A stretch of 62,576 nt of DNA, counting the filler, from Candidatus Nanoarchaeia archaeon (GTDB lineage: Archaea > Nanobdellota > Nanobdellia > Woesearchaeales > DATDTY01), in the NCBI GenBank assembly GCA_035290625.1. It is 6 parts of 6 records of this genome, joined end to end, with 100 filler letters (N's around TTAATTAATTAA, not from the genome) between each part and the next. Parts side by side here need not be neighbours in the genome. Positions count along the whole stretch, not along the records: positions 51,250 to 62,576 come from DATDTY010000069.1; 5 more parts are not named here. One strand, 5' to 3'. A model generated the notes under the pieces. That model saw nothing but the letters and a program-made list of their open reading frames with translations. It was not told the origin of the DNA and did not search any database. Made by a program: the position numbers and the translations under genes. Positions 1,606-61,544 of this stretch are shown piece by piece; position 1 is the stretch's first letter, and every line of letters starts with the position of its first letter.

Positions 1606-1673
1606 TTGAGAGGGGCTTCTTCGGACTGTTTATAATCGTTATGAATTGGCAGAAAGACAGCCGCGCATTAAAG

Positions 1674-1878
1674 AGTTCAGTAGAAAGTGTGTGTTGCCGC
1701 CTTTTTTGCGAGGGTCAATCAAACGAGACATCAACAGCGGAGGGGGGACGTCCCTTACGGGCGAGGTGCCGCTCTTTGCTGAAAACATGAAGAGCCGAGC
1801 TGCTCCGAAGGAGCGACCAAAAATGCGAAGCATTTTTTAGCACGGCGGCAACAGCGAAGCGGAACTTTCTACTGAGCC
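1674..1878 (+). repeat. Structured dispersed element, copy B
   Basis: Terminal IR tcagtagaaagt/actttctactga, inner stem gttgccgcc/ggcggcaac; flanked by direct repeat cgcattaaagag (1664-1675, 1878-1889). Confidence 0.85.
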
Positions 1879-1893
1879 GCATTAAAGAGAATA

Positions 1894-5162: not shown

Positions 5163-5206
5163 GGAAAATGGAGAATGCTGACGCTTTATAAAACTTTAGA
5201 TGCCAA

Positions 5207-5360
5207 ATGGCGTTCAAAATCTTGCGGGTTGCCGCCGGCTCGGCTCTGGCTGTTCACGGAAAGGAGCGGTTCCCTCCCGGATGGAGCCTCCCCTTCCGCT
5301 GCGCATCCTATGTTGATTGAGCCTCGCGGAATTGGCGGCAACCTTCATTTTGAACGCCAT
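5207..5360 (-). repeat. Structured dispersed element, copy C
   Basis: 14-bp terminal IR atggcgttcaaaat/attttgaacgccat; core homologous to copies B and G. Confidence 0.85.
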
Positions 5361-5381
5361 GCAAAGTAAGAGAGTAAGAAT

Positions 5382-6835: not shown

Positions 6836-7446
6836 TGGCTTCCGCCTGCATCTGTTTTAAGTTTTGTTATTAGAATAATGCTTTCTTTCACTGTTCTTAT
6901 TTTATTGAGAATATCATCCGGAACGTATTTTTCTATCTTTTCTTTAGGATAGGTTATCCGCTCTGCCTTCTTGCAGTATAATTCCAGAAATTCTGAATGA
7001 AGCTCATTGACATTATTTTCTACCATCGCATCTTTTATAGTGGCTTTCAATACTTCCTCTCTTTTCTGCAATTCCACCAGCTCTCTTTTGATGTTGTAGT
7101 ACTCTTCTAATATATCTTTATCAACTATGCCTATATCTGTAGCGGGCTTGAAAGGCGCATTGTAGAACCTTTGAAAATCCAAAATAATTTCATCCTGATT
7201 CTTTACAGCTTCCTTTCCGTTTTCTGTCAAGGACACTACAATTATTGAAAAGCTTAGGCCAACATTCATCTCTTTCAAGTAGCCTTTCTCTATAAGCTGT
7301 GATAAGAGATCGTTTGCTTGCTGTATCGAAAATCCTCTAAATTCGTGCCAAACCATCTTGGACAAATTATCCTTGCCATAATTGATTTTCTGTCTATTAA
7401 TGAATTCCAGAATCTGCAATCCGGTCTTATTAGTGAACGTGCTCAT
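6832..7446 (-). CDS. Hypothetical protein with RQC-like winged helix and C-terminal coiled coil
   Basis: YGK..L, LI.KGYL, LTE.G resemble the RecQ RQC domain; ATGA-coupled at both ends. Confidence 0.55.
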   Translation of the reverse strand: MSTFTNKTGLQILEFINRQKINYGKDNLSKMVWHEFRGFSIQQANDLLSQLIEKGYLKEMNVGLSFSIIVVSLTENGKEAVKNQDEIILDFQRFYNAPFKPATDIGIVDKDILEEYYNIKRELVELQKREEVLKATIKDAMVENNVNELHSEFLELYCKKAERITYPKEKIEKYVPDDILNKIRTVKESIILITKLKTDAGGSQ

Positions 7447-7575
7447 TTCAGGCTTTCCTCGATAAGCTTCTTTTCTTCTTCAGTGATTCCGTACAGCTTA
7501 TAGACTTCTTCGTCTATTTCATGGTCCAGCTTTTGGATTTCTTTTTCTAATTGTGCTTTTGAGCCGGTTTGCTTG
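7443..7575 (-). pseudogene. Orphan C-terminal tail of a type IIG (Eco57I/TaqI-like) restriction-modification enzyme, copy 1
   Basis: KAQLEKEIQKLDHEIDEEVYKLYGITEEEKKLIEESLK with no catalytic domains. Confidence 0.7.
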
Positions 7576-8595
7576 CTATTCATCCTTAGTCTCAAGCAGA
7601 TTTTGCAGTTTTTTTTGCAGCTCTTCTTTGTCTGGAAGGTATAGCTGATATTTTGAAACAAATAGCTTATTGGATAGCCCTCCCAACGCGTACTGGATTT
7701 CTATATGCTCTTTTTCAGCGGCAAGAACAATTCCGATAGGAGGGTTGTCTCCTTCAGAGCATTCCTCGCTTTTGAAATAGTTGAGATAGGTATTCATCTG
7801 CCCGATATCCGCATGATTCACTTCGTTTATCTTCAAGTCTATCAAAACAAAGCATTTCAGGATTCTATGATAAAACACGAGGTCCACATAATAATGCCTG
7901 TTGCCTAAGGTAATCCTATATTGCCTGCCAACAAATGAAAATCCTTTTCCAAGTTCAAGCAGGAACATTTGCAGATTATCAATAATTCTCTGCTCAAGCT
8001 CTTTTTCAGAGTAGCGATAATCCTCGGGCAGTTTCAGAAATTCAAAAACATAAGGATCTTTTACTAAGTCTTTAGCGTCATCAATAATCTGCCCTTTTCT
8101 CGATAATTGGATTATCCCTTTCTTATCCTTGCTCAATGCTAAGCGCTTGAACAGAGCTGAATTTTTCTGTCTTTTTAGTTCTCTATTGCTCCATTTCTCA
8201 GTAATGCTCTGCTTCTCATAAAATGACCGCTCTAAATCATCTTCTATCTTTAAAAGCTCAAAATAATGGCTCCATGACAATTGGTGAGACAGCGTCTCAC
8301 TTTTTGGATATTTAAGATAAAACAGCCTCATATAAACAAGGTTGCTCTTGCTAAACCCTTTTCCATGCATTAACCTCAAGTCTTTGGAAAGGTTTTCCAG
8401 AAGCGCAGAGCCATACTCTGCCTTTTCCTTCCCATACTGCTCAAATTCAACAATCCTTTTTCCAATTTCCCAGTATGTTTTGACAAGGATTTCATTCACT
8501 GCATGATATGCGTGCGTTCTGCCTTGCTCCAAAAGATCGCCTATATCTGAGATTAAGGAAGGATATTTATCTTTTGGATTGGTTATCTTTTTCAT
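7576..8595 (-). CDS. DUF1016 / YhcG PD-(D/E)XK nuclease family protein
   Basis: YWEIG, LSWSHY, KDPYVFEFL, FLLELG.GF.FVGRQ, DLVFYH, DLK, GQM..Y. Confidence 0.95.
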   Translation of the reverse strand: MKKITNPKDKYPSLISDIGDLLEQGRTHAYHAVNEILVKTYWEIGKRIVEFEQYGKEKAEYGSALLENLSKDLRLMHGKGFSKSNLVYMRLFYLKYPKSETLSHQLSWSHYFELLKIEDDLERSFYEKQSITEKWSNRELKRQKNSALFKRLALSKDKKGIIQLSRKGQIIDDAKDLVKDPYVFEFLKLPEDYRYSEKELEQRIIDNLQMFLLELGKGFSFVGRQYRITLGNRHYYVDLVFYHRILKCFVLIDLKINEVNHADIGQMNTYLNYFKSEECSEGDNPPIGIVLAAEKEHIEIQYALGGLSNKLFVSKYQLYLPDKEELQKKLQNLLETKDE

Positions 8596-8729
8596 TTCAG
8601 GCTTTCCTCGATAAGCTTCTTTTCTTCTTCAGTAATGCCATATAAGGTATAGACTTCTTGGCCAATTTCGTTGTCTAGTCTTTTAATTTCTTCTTTCGCT
8701 TGTTCTTTTGTTGCTTGTCTTAGAACCAT
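8592..8729 (-). pseudogene. Orphan C-terminal tail of a type IIG R-M enzyme, copy 2
   Basis: KEEIKRLDNEIGQEVYTLYGITEEEKKLIEESLK; 8592-8633 is identical to 7443-7484 (42 bp). Confidence 0.7.
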
Positions 8730-8775: not shown

Positions 8776-8940
8776 GGTCGCATTGAAAAGTTGCTCGCTT
8801 CGCTCGGCAGCGCCAAGTTCGCTATGCACAAGTCAGGCAGAGTAGCGACATTCCCCGGATGGGACAACCCCCTTGTCGCTGTGCCGCCGCTCCGTTATAA
8901 TGGCTCACAAGAGGGCGCTGCATGACTTTTCAATGCCACC
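8776..8940 (-). repeat. Structured dispersed element, copy D
   Basis: IR ggtcgcattgaaaagt/acttttcaatgccacc directly flanked by 8-bp direct repeat tccgtttc (8768-8775, 8941-8948). Confidence 0.88.
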
Positions 8941-26000: not shown

Positions 26001-26088
26001 GACTTCGACTGCCTGATGATATGCTTCCTCTGTGAGGTCCATGGACGAAGATTTGCCAGTACTGCTATTTAAATTCTTGCTTTGAGAA

Positions 26089-26342
26089 GCTCGGTAGAAG
26101 ATGGCGATGGCGGCCATTTGTGAGCCCCTGAAGCCAAGGACACAATAACGACAAGGGGGTTGCCACAATCAAAACGCCGTCGGGCGTTTTGGTGTGCCAA
26201 AAGAGCGTAGCTCTTTTTAGCACCTTCGGGGAATGTCGCTTAACACTCAAAACAACACTGGGCGAAGTTTGCGGCAGCCGGTGGCTTGTTAGCGAGTGAG
26301 AACGAGCTCACTCGCAAGCCACAGCGAGATTTCACCGGAGCC
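26089..26342 (+). repeat. Structured dispersed element, copy E (with nested hairpin insertions)
   Basis: tttgtgagcc, cgacaagggggttg, gaatgtcg, ggcgaa and gatttcaccggagc shared with copies A/D/F. Confidence 0.8.
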
Positions 26343-26343
26343 C

Positions 26344-27300
26344 CTACGGTATGATCCTGAACCTTGTGCTGATGAGGAGCCAGTCGAAGACCCAGAGAAG
26401 GATGGCAATGAGCAGTAGAGCAGGAGCAAGCGGCAGGGTGATTGTCTTTCGCGTAAAGTCCGCAATCTGCGAGAATGCCGTATTCAATTCCGGAATGTCC
26501 TGGCCCCGGAAATACAAGCCTCCGGTCTGCTCTGCGATCTCTTTGAGAGTCTCCTCATCAAGCTTTGTCGTCACGTTGAGATCCCGGAAGAATCCGCCTT
26601 CGAGCGTGCCTACCCCAATTGTATGAACGACTACATCCTTCTGGCTTGCGTATGAAATTGCATCATTTGGCCCGACGCCGATATTGCTCTGCCCATCAGT
26701 CAGCAGAATGACTGCCTTTGCGTTTTTTGCCTGGCTCAGCAGATTCACTGATGTGATGATTGCGCCTCCAAGGTCAGTTCCTCCAATGTTCCTTATTGCA
26801 ATGCGCTGTATAGCATTTCCCACCTCTGCTTCCGAATCTGTCATGTCCAATTCAATGAAGCTGGTTCCGGAGAAGGTCACCAGGCCAATGGACGCAGGTG
26901 AAACAAGCTTTTGAAAGGCGCCCGCAGCCTCTTTGGCAGCCTCAAGGCGATTCGGCTGCAAGTCTTCGCTCAGCATTGATGATGAGATGTCAATCGCGAG
27001 GACAAAATCAAAATTTGGGGCCTCTCCACTGTAGGAATAGATCAGGCCGGAAACTGCCAGCACAAGGCAGGTTAAAGATGTGACCCTTACCGCCAAGGGC
27101 ACAAGGTTTTTGTACTGAAAGATGCTCAGGAGGGGCTGTTCCTTCTCCATGCGCCGCCTGATCTTTGCCAGGGCCTCAAAGTTGGCGAATTCTATCGCCT
27201 TCTGGCTGCTGGAGCGCAGGCTGACAAAATGGACAATAATGAGGAATGGTATGCTTAGGAAAAACCAGAGGTATTGCGGGTTGGTAAATTCAAATGCCAT
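26344..27300 (-). CDS. BatA-like VWA domain membrane protein
   Basis: N-terminal F.NP..L TM segment, MIDAS DISSSM, PNRL, GT..G, LLTDG. Confidence 0.92.
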   Translation of the reverse strand: MAFEFTNPQYLWFFLSIPFLIIVHFVSLRSSSQKAIEFANFEALAKIRRRMEKEQPLLSIFQYKNLVPLAVRVTSLTCLVLAVSGLIYSYSGEAPNFDFVLAIDISSSMLSEDLQPNRLEAAKEAAGAFQKLVSPASIGLVTFSGTSFIELDMTDSEAEVGNAIQRIAIRNIGGTDLGGAIITSVNLLSQAKNAKAVILLTDGQSNIGVGPNDAISYASQKDVVVHTIGVGTLEGGFFRDLNVTTKLDEETLKEIAEQTGGLYFRGQDIPELNTAFSQIADFTRKTITLPLAPALLLIAILLWVFDWLLISTRFRIIP

Positions 27301-49649: not shown

Positions 49650-49742
49650 GCTCCTGTGGTCTAGTGGACAGGATACAACCCTGCGGATCAGCCATGATGC
49701 AGTTGAAAGGTTGCGGCCCGGGTTCAAATCCCGGCAGGAGCG
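49650..49742 (+). tRNA. tRNA-Arg(GCG) with ~21-nt intron at the canonical 37/38 position
   Basis: Acceptor GCTCCTG/CAGGAGC, anticodon stem CAACC/GGTTG with loop CT-GCG-G, T arm CCGGG-TTCAAAT-CCCGG. Confidence 0.9.
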
Positions 49743-51128: not shown

Positions 51129-51149
51129 GGTCTCTGGTGAAAATCCCGC
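51129..51149 (-). repeat. End of a further structured element (copy I) cut by gap
   Basis: Reverse complement gcgggattttcaccagag matches the right ends of copies F and H. Confidence 0.5.
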
Positions 51150-54626: not shown

Positions 54627-55163
54627 CTACACATGCACCTTTGTGATGAGGTCAGCCTTTGTGATGACTCCCTGAACCCTGCCTTTTTCCATCACAATAA
54701 TCAGGGGATAATATCTGAGCAGATGTGAGAATGCGCTGACTCCTGCTGATGCAGGAACCAGAGGAGGGCAATCGCTCATAACCTCACGCACAGTTTTTCC
54801 TTTGCCTGTAAGAAGGCTGTCAAGAATTATGGATTCAGATATGATCCCAACTGGCTTCTCATGCTCTGTCACGACAAGCTGCGATATTCCATATCTCTTC
54901 ATCTTGTTTGTTGCAGCCTTGATCGGGCTTTCAGGATCGATTGCAACCACCTTCCTGTTCATAACGTCTTGCGCCTTAAGCTCCTTTCTGTTCTGAATGG
55001 AACTCAGGCTCTCAAAGATTTTCTTTGCATTCGAGTATGTCGGATCGATCTTGCCGGACTCAATCTTGGCGATGAGGCTCTGGCTGACCCCTGCCAGCTT
55101 GGCCAGCCCTGTCTGGGTAAGTTCAAACTTCCTTCTCAGCTGTTTGATGTCGTGGAGCTCCAT
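54627..55163 (-). CDS. HTH-CBS transcriptional regulator
   Basis: LTQ..LA..AGVSQSLIAKIESG.IDP plus a CBS pair. Confidence 0.92.
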   Translation of the reverse strand: MELHDIKQLRRKFELTQTGLAKLAGVSQSLIAKIESGKIDPTYSNAKKIFESLSSIQNRKELKAQDVMNRKVVAIDPESPIKAATNKMKRYGISQLVVTEHEKPVGIISESIILDSLLTGKGKTVREVMSDCPPLVPASAGVSAFSHLLRYYPLIIVMEKGRVQGVITKADLITKVHV

Positions 55164-55235
55164 ACGGATTAGGTGAATGGAGGGGATATATATTGATTAC
55201 TGTTTTTTCATCGTAAAAATTCTTATTGGAATATT

Positions 55236-55401
55236 GGCTCCGGTGAAAATCAATGCTGCCGCCCTTTGTGAGCAACAGGGCAAGAACAATAACCTCGACC
55301 TCGGGGGGATGCCCCTTACGGGGCGAATGTCGATTTGGTGAAGGATTTTTCAGCCATTGCGAACTCCGCGGCAGCTGCGAAGCAAGATTTTCACCGGAGC
55401 C
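55236..55401 (+). repeat. Structured dispersed element, copy F
   Basis: Perfect 16-bp IR ggctccggtgaaaatc/gattttcaccggagcc flanked by ggaatat(t/g) direct repeat. Confidence 0.88.
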
Positions 55402-55461
55402 GGAATATGAAAAGAACAGTGAAACACACCCTGGAGCAAGCCCTGGAAGATCGGATCCCAG

Positions 55462-57236: not shown

Positions 57237-58699
57237 AGGATATCCTTGATTTTCTTTTTCTTCTCTGCTGCCTGGTATATGCTCAGCGGATCCTTGTAAT
57301 AGATGCGCATAAGCCTTCCGACATCATCGATCTCCTTGACATTGTTGGCAGCCATCCACTGGAGAATGACTTGTTTCTGTCTTCGGTCTTCTTCAATCTC
57401 TTTTGGCGTCATCCCGGTATGGAGGTTCAGCTCCTCCTGGATCCTGATGCTCTCATTCACCTTCTCAAAGGAATCGCCCCTGGCGCGCCATCTGTAGAGG
57501 TGGTTAAGCTCGATCTTGCCCTCATTCCCCAGGACCTCCGCGACTTCAAGTACTCTCCTCACCCCTTTCCTCCTGTCACGGTATTGCACGACAACAAGGT
57601 GGAGCGCTTCAAGCTCTGCTGAAGGGATAGCCATAGGGGGCTCAGTCAGCCTGCGCCTGACCTGCTCTGCAGTGTCTGCATGCATTGTAGCATAGACGCT
57701 ATGGCCGGTGTGCATTGCCTCAAACAGCGACTCTGCCTGGCGCTTTCTGCGTATCTCTCCCACAATAATCCTGTCAGGCCTCATCCTCAGAGACGCAACC
57801 ATCAGGTCCAGCATCGTCACCTCTCCCATCCCTTCAGGGTTCCTGTTCCTGCTGGAGAGGGGAATCCAGTTCCAAACCAGCTCATTTGGAAGCCTGATCT
57901 CCCGGGTGTCCTCAATGCTGATAATCCTCTGGGACGCAGGCAGGAAACTGCAGATGGAGTTAAGCATCGAGGTCTTGCCAGATGCAGTTCCGCCTGCAAT
58001 CAGGATATTCAGCTCATACTGCATCGCCTGCCAAAGCAGGCTGGCAATCTCTGGAGAAAGCGTCTTTGCCTCTATGAAGTGGACAGGGGTCCAGGGGTTC
58101 CTCGCAAACCTCCGTATTGTAATTGTGTTTTCCTGTGAAACAGGGAAGAGTGTTGCAGCAACCCGGTCGCCTGTTTCGAGATGCGCATCCATGATAGGCT
58201 GAAGGGAATTGATCTCTCTGCCTGCTTTTCTTCCGATCTGGCTGGCAATATTGTATATTTCCTCTTCTGAACCAAATGTCTTGGTTGTCTTGCACCAGCC
58301 GTACTTCTTATGGTAGACAGAGATCGGCTGCTTTGAGCCATTGATGCTGATCTCCTCAAGCCAGTTATCTTTCATCAGGATCTCAAGGAACCCGAGCCCG
58401 AGCATCCTGTGCAGAAGCATTCCTGCCAGAATCTTGATCTCTGATTCCTTCTGGCCAGGAAGCCTCCTTGTAAGTGCTTCCATAGCTTCCTTCAGAAACG
58501 TCTCCTTTTGCATGCTGCCCATCAGCGGAATCTTTGGGCTAAGCTCCTCAGAAAGGTGGTTAAGCAGCGCCTCAGTCCCCTTGTCAAGCTCAGGCATGAT
58601 GATCTCGTACTGCGGGACAAGCTGGAGGCTTACAGAGACGATGCTGATAGTTGCAGGCACAGAATCTGCCGTTACTTTGTAGGTTTCGAGGATTGCCAT
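57233..58699 (-). CDS. Type IV pilus assembly ATPase (CpaF/VirB11 family)
   Basis: GGTASGKTS, SIEDTRE, LRMRPDRIIVGE.R, TGH...T.HA. Confidence 0.95.
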   Translation of the reverse strand: MAILETYKVTADSVPATISIVSVSLQLVPQYEIIMPELDKGTEALLNHLSEELSPKIPLMGSMQKETFLKEAMEALTRRLPGQKESEIKILAGMLLHRMLGLGFLEILMKDNWLEEISINGSKQPISVYHKKYGWCKTTKTFGSEEEIYNIASQIGRKAGREINSLQPIMDAHLETGDRVAATLFPVSQENTITIRRFARNPWTPVHFIEAKTLSPEIASLLWQAMQYELNILIAGGTASGKTSMLNSICSFLPASQRIISIEDTREIRLPNELVWNWIPLSSRNRNPEGMGEVTMLDLMVASLRMRPDRIIVGEIRRKRQAESLFEAMHTGHSVYATMHADTAEQVRRRLTEPPMAIPSAELEALHLVVVQYRDRRKGVRRVLEVAEVLGNEGKIELNHLYRWRARGDSFEKVNESIRIQEELNLHTGMTPKEIEEDRRQKQVILQWMAANNVKEIDDVGRLMRIYYKDPLSIYQAAEKKKKIKDIL

Positions 58700-59144: not shown

Positions 59145-59216
59145 CACCCCTCGCACTCTCCCTAGGTTTCAGGTTTAAAAGCGTTTCGATTGTGTTGAGT
59201 AAAGTTATTACCTTCC

Positions 59217-59371
59217 GCTTTTTGCAAAGGGAAGGGTGCCGCCAATTTTGCGAGACTCAATCACGCAAAGATGAGCAGCGGAAGGGGACGCTCCCTCGGG
59301 AAGGTGCCGCGCTTCTCTGAAAACATCCAGAGACGAGTCGGCGGCACCCCGACAAAGCCTTTGCAAAAAGC
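59217..59371 (+). repeat. Structured dispersed element, copy G
   Basis: IR gctttttgcaaagg/cctttgcaaaaagc; gggtgccgcc/ggcggcaccc; core like copies B and C. Confidence 0.85.
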
Positions 59372-59382
59372 ACTTGGGAAGT

Positions 59383-60074: not shown

Positions 60075-60620
60075 TTATGATACCATTAAACCGCCTTTTT
60101 TATAATCCCTCGGATTACCCCGAAAAAGATGGAATGCCTCCTGCGCCTCGTGATTAAGCATAATGATAGAAGGTATATCTGCGAGTTGAGAAAGGTCAAG
60201 GTCAAGGGCGGAAGGATGGTTGAGAGGTTTTTCTGCAGGGAGGTGTAGCAGTCCCATTAGGATCCTCCAAGATGAGCTGTGAAGCGGGGGGGGGAAGGCA
60301 CGGATGCTCTTGCAAGCCATGCGCCGCCTCTTCTAGGCATGATATTTATCCCTTTTCCTGTGCCCCGGAGCAAAACATCAATCACACCAAACTCAGAGGT
60401 GTAGCAGAGATAGTCAGGATATCCAATGTTTAGGTCTCCGATATTGACCTGATCCAAGATCTTTCCTTTCCTGACGATACACATATTGTTGTCAGTATTA
60501 GAAGAAAGAGAATCAACAACTAACGGAAGCCTCGCAAACGGAGGATTGTTCAGCACTTTATTCTTCACATCATCATCAACAAAGTAGACCTGCTCTGCAG
60601 AAGGCTTTGTACCTTCTTTT
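60075..60620 (-). CDS. Two TAATG-coupled hypothetical ORFs (60075-60257 and 60257-~60620; upstream one probably 5'-damaged)
   Basis: GGAGG before ATG at 60257; the upstream frame lacks an ATG. Confidence 0.35.
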
Positions 60621-61169: not shown

Positions 61170-61298
61170 TTACCTATACGCTTCCCAACCCTCAACACTG
61201 CTTGTCCTCAAGCTCTGGAGAAATGCCATGGTTTCTGTATCTTCGGGATTCCTAGCCTGGAAGTCTTCGATAAATACAAGAAGGTCTTGCTGGGTGGG
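61170..61298 (-). pseudogene. Orphan C-terminal gene fragment ending GWEAYR, abutting element H
   Basis: PTQQDLLVFIEDFQARNPEDTETMAFLQSLRTSSVEGWEAYR; homologous to 62068-62292. Confidence 0.5.
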
Positions 61299-61503
61299 GC
61301 TTGCTGAGAATCCCGGTTGCTGCCCTTTTGCGAGGCTCTTAAGGAGTAGTATGAGCTGAGTTGAAGGGGTCGTCCCTTACGGGGGTTCAACGATACATGC
61401 AGAGGGGCAGCACAAGCCGAGCTGCTCCGAAGGAGCGACCAAAAATGAAAAAGCATTTTTGAGTACTGACGGCAGCTGCGAAGCGGGATTTTCACAGCCG
61501 AGC
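61298..61503 (+). repeat. Structured dispersed element, copy H
   Basis: tttgcgagg, gggg..gtcccttacggg; 33-nt identity with copy B (61415-61447 vs 1793-1825). Confidence 0.8.
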
Positions 61504-61544
61504 GTTCAGTTAAATATAAATAGAGGGGCGTATCCTGGGTGCCT

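Follow-up and report, generated by a model that had tools for sequence, protein, structure and literature searches.

The closest described relatives of the element reported here are the MITEs (miniature inverted-repeat transposable elements) mobilised by IS5-family transposases, for example the Neisseria elements that PMC11602168 lists as IS1106_IS5, which are short, non-coding, bounded by terminal inverted repeats (TIRs) and target-site duplications (TSDs), and present in many intergenic copies. Such MITEs have only their TIRs in common with an autonomous IS5-family element and they fold into hairpins. For one Woesearchaeal genome, the same text gives 105 MITEs per Mb. Here, we describe a non-coding MITE of 166 nt located at positions 55236..55401 of a DNA stretch of 62,576 nucleotides (the window), which is made of six contigs of one genome of Candidatus Nanoarchaeia archaeon (Woesearchaeales; GCA_035290625.1) joined by N...TTAATTAATTAA...N linkers. 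Its family resembles IS5-mobilised MITEs in these features, an IS5-family partner with matching TIRs being seen for one TIR family (GGCTCAGTAGAAAGTC), but differs from them by its archaeal host, TATA boxes at a fixed distance, a branched core that is found across TIR families, a tandem G.A pair carried by one strand and a regional orientation bias. We estimate at roughly 45% the probability that it is a MITE whose conserved polar hairpin core likely acts as single-stranded DNA (ssDNA) at replication forks, and not an RNA gene or a signal of the attC/REP type. A polarity confined to the interior, an orientation that follows strand asymmetry and not promoters, and motifs whose stability is favoured in DNA are, in our view, best explained by folding of ssDNA. 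What is new here is the near-universal occurrence of the tandem G.A on one strand, the enrichment of mini-hairpins on both strands, the independence of core and TIRs, and the regional orientation bias. As far as the available texts go, the literature on MITEs and on promoter targeting by transposons holds no such archaeal, TATA-spaced element with a polar core, and the fold is not described in the accessible parts of the literature on archaeal or DPANN miniature inverted-repeat elements. Nothing relevant was among the matches listed for archaeal transposons and TATA boxes, and a search on the tandem sheared G.A motif GGCGAGCC found no paper.

Other known systems resemble the element in part. 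Integron attC sites likewise have a strand-specific fold with non-Watson-Crick features, and their function depends on the exposure of ssDNA. However, they have no TIRs or target duplication and lie in cassette arrays beside a tyrosine recombinase, whereas the copies described here are dispersed, TSD-flanked, located upstream of promoters and paired with DDE transposases; no search for an integron integrase was made. Repetitive extragenic palindromes (REP) and bacterial interspersed mosaic elements with their RAYT proteins, as well as the ends of IS200/IS605 elements, are likewise abundant intergenic palindromes, and Y1 transposases are encoded in this genome too. Nonetheless, each REP or IS200 end is just one short hairpin that lacks both TIRs and duplications, while the core elements here carry TSDs. 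The DNA mini-hairpins d(GCGNAGC) and d(GCGNNAGC), which the available text of PMC13037366 places in ssDNA phage origins and in ssiA, likewise have C-G-closed GNA or GNNA loops (N, any base) with sheared G.A pairs, and GCGAAGC and CCGAAGG are common to the mini-hairpins of that text and to these elements. While the known mini-hairpins serve as individual priming signals in the ssDNA of phages or plasmids, those of the present elements are built into a transposon core and are found on either strand. Finally, the K-turn, or L7Ae motif, likewise has a tandem sheared-type G.A/A.G near an asymmetric loop, but its 3-nt bulge lies directly 5' of the G.A. In agreement with an earlier reading of this DNA from its sequence alone (hereafter the sequence-only reading), the element is not a canonical K-turn, as two Watson-Crick pairs separate its U-rich loop of 5-6 nt from the G.A.

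The source genome comprises 1.37 Mb in 84 contigs and has a GC content of 46%. BLAST with four copies from the window identified 94-99 loci in this genome, and three more rounds gave a total of 181 loci covering 27 kb, 129 of which are bounded by TIRs (16-nt inverted arms with at most 3 mismatches). Counts for the family refer to these 129 TIR-bounded copies unless stated otherwise. In the copy at 55236..55401, hereafter the reference copy, all parts are given on the plus strand. The left TIR, GGCTCCGGTGAAAATC (55236..55251), is the 5' arm of helix P1 and forms a perfect 16/16 inverted repeat with the right TIR, GATTTTCACCGGAGCC (55386..55401). The flanks, GGAATATT (55228..55235) and GGAATATG (55402..55409), agree at 7/8 positions and correspond to the two copies of a decayed TSD. 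Three nucleotides after the left TIR, the 5' arm of P2, GCTGCCGC (55255..55262), pairs with its 3' arm GCGGCAGC (55368..55375). It is followed by J1, a pyrimidine-rich asymmetric loop of 5 nt (CCTTT, 55263..55267), and by P3, whose arms GTGAGC (55268..55273) and GCGAAC (55359..55364) hold the G.A and the A.G of the tandem pair, respectively. Further inside, variable arms lie between P3 and P4 and between the returning strands of these helices. P4 (CTCGAC/GTCGA, 55294..55333) encloses a G-run (55303-55308) and the apex hairpin CCCCTTACGGGG (55312..55323), which reads C(GTAA)G on the bottom strand. A tail mini-hairpin, GCGAAGC with a C(GAA)G loop (55377..55383), stands between P2 and the right TIR. 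Across the 53 parsed copies, J1 measures 3-8 nt on its 5' side and mostly 1-5 nt on its 3' side, the latter being longer where hairpin modules are inserted. As a side observation, the apex runs of the reference copy (G5-6, C4 and G4, 55303-55323), which are likewise present in the sister copies, permit two mutually exclusive hairpins, G-run with C-run or C-run with second G-run, between which covariation does not discriminate.

The hallmark of the core is its tandem G.A. We searched for GA...GA with two canonical pairs on each side, P2 not being presupposed, and found the tandem G.A/A.G on one strand in 121/129 copies and on the other in 21/129. The strand that carries it is called the top strand, or G.A strand. 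The proposal that one strand carries a sheared-type tandem G.A is supported, and so is the context noticed for it, pyrimidine-GA-purine on both arms, which is found in 115 of the 121 top-strand tandems (CGAG/CGAG 49, TGAG/CGAA 44, TGAG/CGAG 9, and others). The arms of P3 also agree genome-wide with the conserved helix and the T-A to C-G change previously noticed: GTGAGC/GCGAAC is present 37 times, GCGAGC/GCGAGC 25 times, GCGAGG/CCGAGC 22 times and GTGAGG/CCGAGC 7 times, besides other types. Indeed, two pairs of P3 covary (T-A to C-G, and C-G to G-C) around the invariant GA/AG. P2 covaries between families (GTTGCCGCC, CGGCATC, CAGCGCC) and so does P4 (AUCGAC/GUCGAU, GUUGA/UCAAC, GCGG/CCGC, GCUGAC/GUCAGC). 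With 14 copies, RNAalifold gives 28 consensus pairs, 16 of which have compensatory changes; MAFFT misaligns P3 between subfamilies. No fewer than five types of TIR are combined with the P2-P3 core, and a single TIR type is associated with different P2 sequences, so the core is a separate module and not a transposase-specific end.

The loops of the element recall the DNA mini-hairpins. C-G-closed GNA or GNNA loops on stems of at least 3 bp number 84 in 63 elements on the top strand and 64 in 56 elements on the bottom strand (p 0.12). Mononucleotide shuffles yield 14.4 such loops on average and never more than 23, which corresponds to an enrichment of about five-fold on both strands. The strong enrichment of loops of this DNA type is in line with the sequence-only reading. 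That the complementary strand would be unable to form such motifs does not hold, since the bottom strand has its own 64 loops and the C(GTAA)G of the reference apex is among its motifs. According to the available text of PMC13037366, the melting temperature is 76.5 C for d(GCGAAGC) and 39 C for r(GCGAAAGC), mini-hairpin stability is unexplained by conventional models, and CCGAAGG is present in the ssiA priming hairpin. The side hairpins proposed earlier (GCGAAGC, CCGAAGG and GCGTAGC types) are all present, but a strict GNA rule is not followed, as AGG, UUG and AUG loops also occur. One side hairpin is GCTC-C(GAA)G-GAGC in 23/30 cases and has C(GCA)G in 6/30; another has C(GTA)G in 10/16, the remaining 6 being C(ATG)G. 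A hairpin module with A5 and T5 on either side of its stem, which is optional and places its T-run on either strand, has GCGAAGC in 11/31. Among predicted triloops, 46/107 are GNA on the top strand and 13/107 on the bottom; triloops and tetraloops are predicted in similar numbers (107 and 109). The apex is the most conserved hairpin and its G-N-A(-N) reading falls on the bottom strand, where the loops UUAC, AUAC and UUC of the top strand become GUAA, GUAU and GAA. The 87 bottom-strand apex loops include GUAA (22), to which the reference copy belongs, GUAU (14), GGAU (9), GAA (8), GAAU (7) and GUA (5). An RNA UNCG tetraloop was considered for the apex and rejected, since no more than about 8/87 copies close the loop with a C-G pair.

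Mismatches and wobble pairs were also counted. On the top strand, 1x1 mismatches are purine-purine in 110 cases and pyrimidine-pyrimidine in 50. G.U pairs total 510 on the top and 555 on the bottom strand over all copies, and 32 versus 47 in the consensus sequences of 12 subfamilies (the clusters with at least 3 members, out of 73). Such wobble symmetry between the strands is expected if G.T counts as a mismatch. Overall, strand specificity of the fold is partial: the tandem G.A, the GNA triloops and the purine-purine mismatches favour the top strand, while the C-G-closed loops, the apex, the G.U pairs and the predicted energies do not.

The copies lie about 14 nt from TATA boxes. Among the 128 of 129 copies that have enough flank to be scored, AT-rich 8-mers show one peak before the 5' end, at -24 to -20, and another after the 3' end, at +14 to +16, each peak comprising about 40% of the copies. 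An AT-rich box lies 11-18 nt from an end in 108/128 copies, on the 5' side only in 41, on the 3' side only in 38 and on both sides in 29. On the box-bearing sides, the nearest gene points away in 102/128, its ATG being mostly 30-36 nt past the box. This spacing, together with genes heading away, indicates that the copies lie immediately upstream of leaderless promoters, whichever way round they are. In the reference copy, a TATA-like box is present on the minus strand at 55214..55221, 15-22 nt outside the left end (the family as a whole peaks at 14-22 nt beyond either end), and a second AT-rich box (55186-55194) is closer to the ATG of the minus-strand gene at 54627-55163. The copies are found in 32 divergent versus 11 convergent intergenic regions, against a background of 199:168 (p 0.009), and their polarity does not follow the promoter that they hug (41 vs 38, p 0.82). 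An RNA gene with its own TATA promoter was rejected, as the AT-rich box is symmetric about the element and belongs to the departing genes.

In contrast to promoters, the regional context is linked to polarity. The orientations of the copies cluster within contigs, the observed statistic being reached in 103 of 20000 permutations. Pairs on the same contig have the same or the opposite orientation in ratios of 22:13, 40:27 and 41:19 at successive distances up to 30 kb, and of 15:15 beyond. Gene strand was taken from 1168 crude open reading frame (ORF) genes of at least 100 aa, none of which overlaps an element. On this basis, most coding DNA has the G.A strand as its sense strand for 69:60 copies within +-2 kb, 74:55 within +-5 kb, 80:49 within +-10 kb, 82:47 within +-20 kb and 86:43 per contig. 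The skews at third codon positions (GC3 and AT3) were corrected by subtracting the mean sense-strand skew. On the G.A strand, residual GC3 skew is negative, with 46:83 copies at +-2 kb, rho between -0.29 and -0.32 and p between 2e-4 and 1e-3, and residual AT3 skew is positive (rho 0.26-0.37). In the 24 contigs with at least two copies and a majority orientation, the majority polarity coincides with the gene majority in 18, and the residual skew gives a rho of -0.62 (p 0.001). Within +-2 kb the skew already gives a signal but gene strand does not, so that the former is not a mere by-product of the latter. Replication-linked orientation bias is reported for numerous DDE families, among them an IS5 group of Firmicutes, and it was argued to require that the transposase complex be asymmetric and bind the sliding clamp (available text of PMC3971601).

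These data bear on whether the core might be a structured RNA that acts in read-through transcripts, for example as a 3'-end stabiliser, a terminator or an insulator before the next promoter, which we consider unlikely. A role in RNA would fit with the G.A strand being co-oriented with most genes, at +-10 kb as well as in tandem intergenic regions (43:29), with the A5-stem-T5 modules that yield T-runs on both strands, and with a covariation that suits RNA equally. Tandem sheared G.A pairs in a C-GA-G context are stable in RNA as well. However, the copies are upstream of the TATA box and thus outside the transcript of the hugged gene, they are over-represented in divergent regions, into which no read-through comes from either neighbour, and they show no bias relative to the hugged promoter. 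Moreover, co-orientation is weakest at +-2 kb, where transcription should count most, G.U is not preferred over A.C on the G.A strand, and triloops are about as frequent as tetraloops. Rfam holds no match for the element: at gathering scores the window matches only a tRNA, and at E up to 10 there are 0 matches on 55200-55440, while four weak matches, all below gathering scores, fall on 1640-1920 (best E 0.13).

The way these elements move is indicated by their ends. In the GGCTC families, the target duplications are perfect over 9 bp and the ends read GG..CC; the GGTGGCATTGAAAAG family has 8-bp duplications. When a duplication of 9 bp with no more than 1 mismatch is demanded, 35/181 loci qualify, many duplications being decayed. 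In metagenome contigs, the commonest 16-nt TIR was located at no fewer than 118 loci, at least 7 of which hold an insertion sequence of about 890 bp with matching TIRs (GGCTCAGTAGAAAGTC family), namely L208:727-1616 (-) and others on L162, L191, L192, L199, L215 and L226. Several metagenome loci are identical to contigs of this genome and are therefore not independent samples. The insertion sequence has an ORF of 270 aa (P0001) with PF01609 as its only Pfam match (E 1.9e-15); its best NCBIfam match is the IS5 family NF033579 (E 3.2e-35), at 122 bits below the cut-off of 140 bits. In L208, the element is flanked by a duplication of 9 bp, CTATCAAAC, with a TATA-like box at +16. Only the TIRs are common to the interior of the ~890-bp insertion sequence and the MITE core. 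Two G-run/C-run hairpins are also seen in the ~890-bp elements, directly 5' of the transposase start codon. Altogether, the TIRs, the duplications of 8-9 bp and the matching elements of the IS5 family suggest that duplex DNA is moved by DDE transposition.

The genome itself encodes a second compact IS5-like element of about 967 bp, C49:19040-20006 (L265), with the TIR GGCTCGATTGCAAGTT. Its transposase of 284 aa matches NF033579 (E 3.6e-28, below the cut-off) but has no Pfam match, and was for this reason overlooked in the Pfam-based search of the genome. TATA-like boxes lie 13-16 nt outside the ends of this element, and contigs C74, C41 and C50 start with its 3' end. Three MITEs share its TIRs (C15:2072-2290, C30:15139-15357 and C17:1431-1627) and have an AT-rich interior with no core. 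The sole PF01609 match of the genome (C61, 511 aa) was rejected as a partner because it has no matching TIR. A 9-bp duplication is typical of the IS903 group of the IS5 family. This group was likewise rejected, since its domain PF13737 (DDE_Tnp_1_5) has 0 matches in this genome; it is found in 10/401 genomes of the order, with other TIRs. A scan for TIR pairs 450-4000 bp apart, made with loose seeds, gave only noise. For comparisons within the order, 40 genomes were searched by BLAST and 400 by domain, all from other genera and families.

A different use of ssDNA was put forward by the sequence-only reading, in which the top strand is an oriented signal recognised by a dedicated enzyme, in the manner of attC sites, REP/HUH substrates or single-strand origins. 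The one-strand tandem G.A and the regional orientation bias would suit such a signal, as would the GNA mini-hairpins, which include the ssiA-type CCGAAGG (available text of PMC13037366). HUH transposases of the Y1 type are also encoded in the genome, with 6 matches to Y1_Tnp (PF01797). IS200/IS605-type Y1 genes (140-151 aa) lie at C49:16170-16517, C46:22216-22563 and C18:70-417, with fragments on C72, C39 and C41. However, the ends of the IS200/IS605 copies form other hairpins (CCCCGCCC-TTTA-GGGCGGGG) that are unlike the MITE core, and no core lies alongside them. The 3' part of IS200/IS605 recurs on C54, C41, C40 and C18. The likeness to attC, REP/HUH or origins gives way to that of a TIR- and TSD-bearing transposon tied to IS5-family DDE transposases, and hence to duplex transposition. 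Furthermore, the bottom strand carries mini-hairpins of its own, and the G.A strand is on the C/A-rich, presumably less exposed strand. With 129 dispersed chromosomal copies, which are unlike an origin, a single-strand origin or ssi signal was rejected. We therefore regard a dedicated-enzyme signal as improbable.

We favour instead a MITE whose polar core would fold as ssDNA at the fork, each strand in its own way and the G.A strand probably the more stable. The polarity of the core would render an otherwise symmetric element orientable, and the orientation bias could then arise by two routes: a fork-coupled insertion through an asymmetric transposase complex, or a preferential loss of copies whose G.A strand is on the exposed lagging-strand template. 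A more far-reaching version, which we hold to be doubtful though worth stating, is that the core is a swappable cis-acting polar ssDNA module, composed of a tandem sheared G.A and mini-hairpins, that was taken up by several archaeal MITE families, that makes IS5-type transposition, or else whether copies survive, depend on the fork, and that provides a left and a right, so that the strand can be read from genome-wide orientation. MITEs are usually regarded as symmetric junk hairpins, and here an elaborate polar fold is retained across different ends. If this fold works as ssDNA, it would represent a DDE-type element that uses, or is filtered by, single-strand structure at the fork, which would be new for archaea, and it would help to tell which way the genomes of uncultured DPANN archaea are replicated.

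Several results weigh against a core acting as ssDNA. First, the covariation is satisfied equally by RNA folding. Second, nearest-neighbour energies give the G.A strand no advantage: top and bottom strands have -77.2 versus -76.2 kcal/mol as RNA and -42.5 versus -41.8 kcal/mol as DNA over all copies, and the reference copy has -78.1 (z -6.7) versus -75.5 (z -6.1) kcal/mol as RNA and -41.7 versus -42.0 kcal/mol as DNA. The unequal stability of the two strands that had been anticipated is thus not borne out by the predicted energies, and equal stability was the outcome that the sequence-only reading itself had named as speaking against it. Since the models miss the stability of mini-hairpins, these energies may understate DNA folding on both strands. 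Third, the first orientation tests were not significant: rho is -0.15 (p 0.10) for raw GC skew within +-4 kb and 0.15 (p 0.08) for local gene strand, neighbouring copies are co-directed in 44/79, and the 43 co-oriented versus 29 copies of tandem intergenic regions give a p of 0.12. The significant tests were picked post hoc, after inspection of the data; copies within a contig are not independent, so that clustering inflates the element-level p values; and the gene calls are crude ORF calls. The leading strand is usually G- and T-rich and carries more genes. Under this rule, the gene-strand and skew correlates disagree in this metagenome-assembled genome of 84 contigs. The G.A strand is on the C/A-rich side, while an attC-like exposed strand on the lagging template predicts the opposite, if the rule holds here. 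The orientation bias for which the sequence-only reading suggested a test is found as a regional non-randomness, but, under that rule, on the side of the skew opposite to the attC-like expectation. Finally, no insertion sequence with the exact TIR variant of the reference copy turned up, although no search aimed at it was made, and the existence of core-less MITEs implies that the core is unnecessary for mobility as such.

It could also be that the fold has no function, the element being a decaying ancestral palindrome, its G.A a frozen accident and the clustering of orientations a product of local hopping or of the assembly. Wobble and mismatch counts that are equal on both strands within families, as in neutral decay, are consistent with this, and so is the existence of MITEs without a core. 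The same is true of a metagenome MITE copy with the same TIR (L263), in which the G.A/A.G of P3 is replaced by Watson-Crick pairs (TCGAGCCAT / ATGGCTCGA). Against it, the pairing of P1-P4 is preserved between families through double changes, the G.A tandem persists in nearly all copies and in no fewer than five TIR families even as the adjoining pairs vary, and GNA/GNNA loops far exceed those of shuffles. A fold devoid of function is thus quite unlikely.

Besides the reference copy, the window holds further members of the family. On the plus strand, the copy at 1673..1879 has GCGAGG/CCGAGC arms and two side hairpins, that at 26085..26350 has GTGAGC/GCGAAG arms and three inserted hairpin modules, that at 59215..59373 has a different TIR, and that at 61296..61511 has GCGAGG/CCGAGC arms with side hairpins. 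On the minus strand, a copy with GCGAGG/CCGAGC arms and a GTTCAAAAT-type TIR lies at 5205..5362, and a member of the GGTGGCATTGAAAAG family, with its 8-bp duplication, at 8776..8940. A truncated copy with the left TIR only (51130..51149, plus strand) is located at a contig end. Many copies are found at contig ends, which indicates that these repeats break the assembly; as they also resemble structured-RNA genes beside TATA boxes, they should be masked in screens for small RNAs. Contigs from four DNA metagenome runs break at the reference copy as well, and no empty-site joint is present among them. By BLAST, the reference copy has 0 matches in the 40 other genomes of the order. A scan of genome contigs with the P2-J-P3 pattern was uninformative, unrelated GC-rich bacteria being among the matches listed.

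Other features of the window were observed in passing. At 57672-57915 and 60356-60599, the summed contig depth from four metagenome runs is 3-5-fold higher, with joints at 57724/58011 and 57787/57959, and these segments look like other repeats in or beside genes. Two direct repeats of 133 nt each (7429-7561 and 8578-8710) are 78% alike and 1149 nt apart. Lastly, the tRNA matched by Rfam is a gene with a 24-nt intron, which identifies the genome as archaeal, on the plus strand at 49650-49742; it scores 52.4 bits with the Rfam tRNA model and was missed by ARAGORN.

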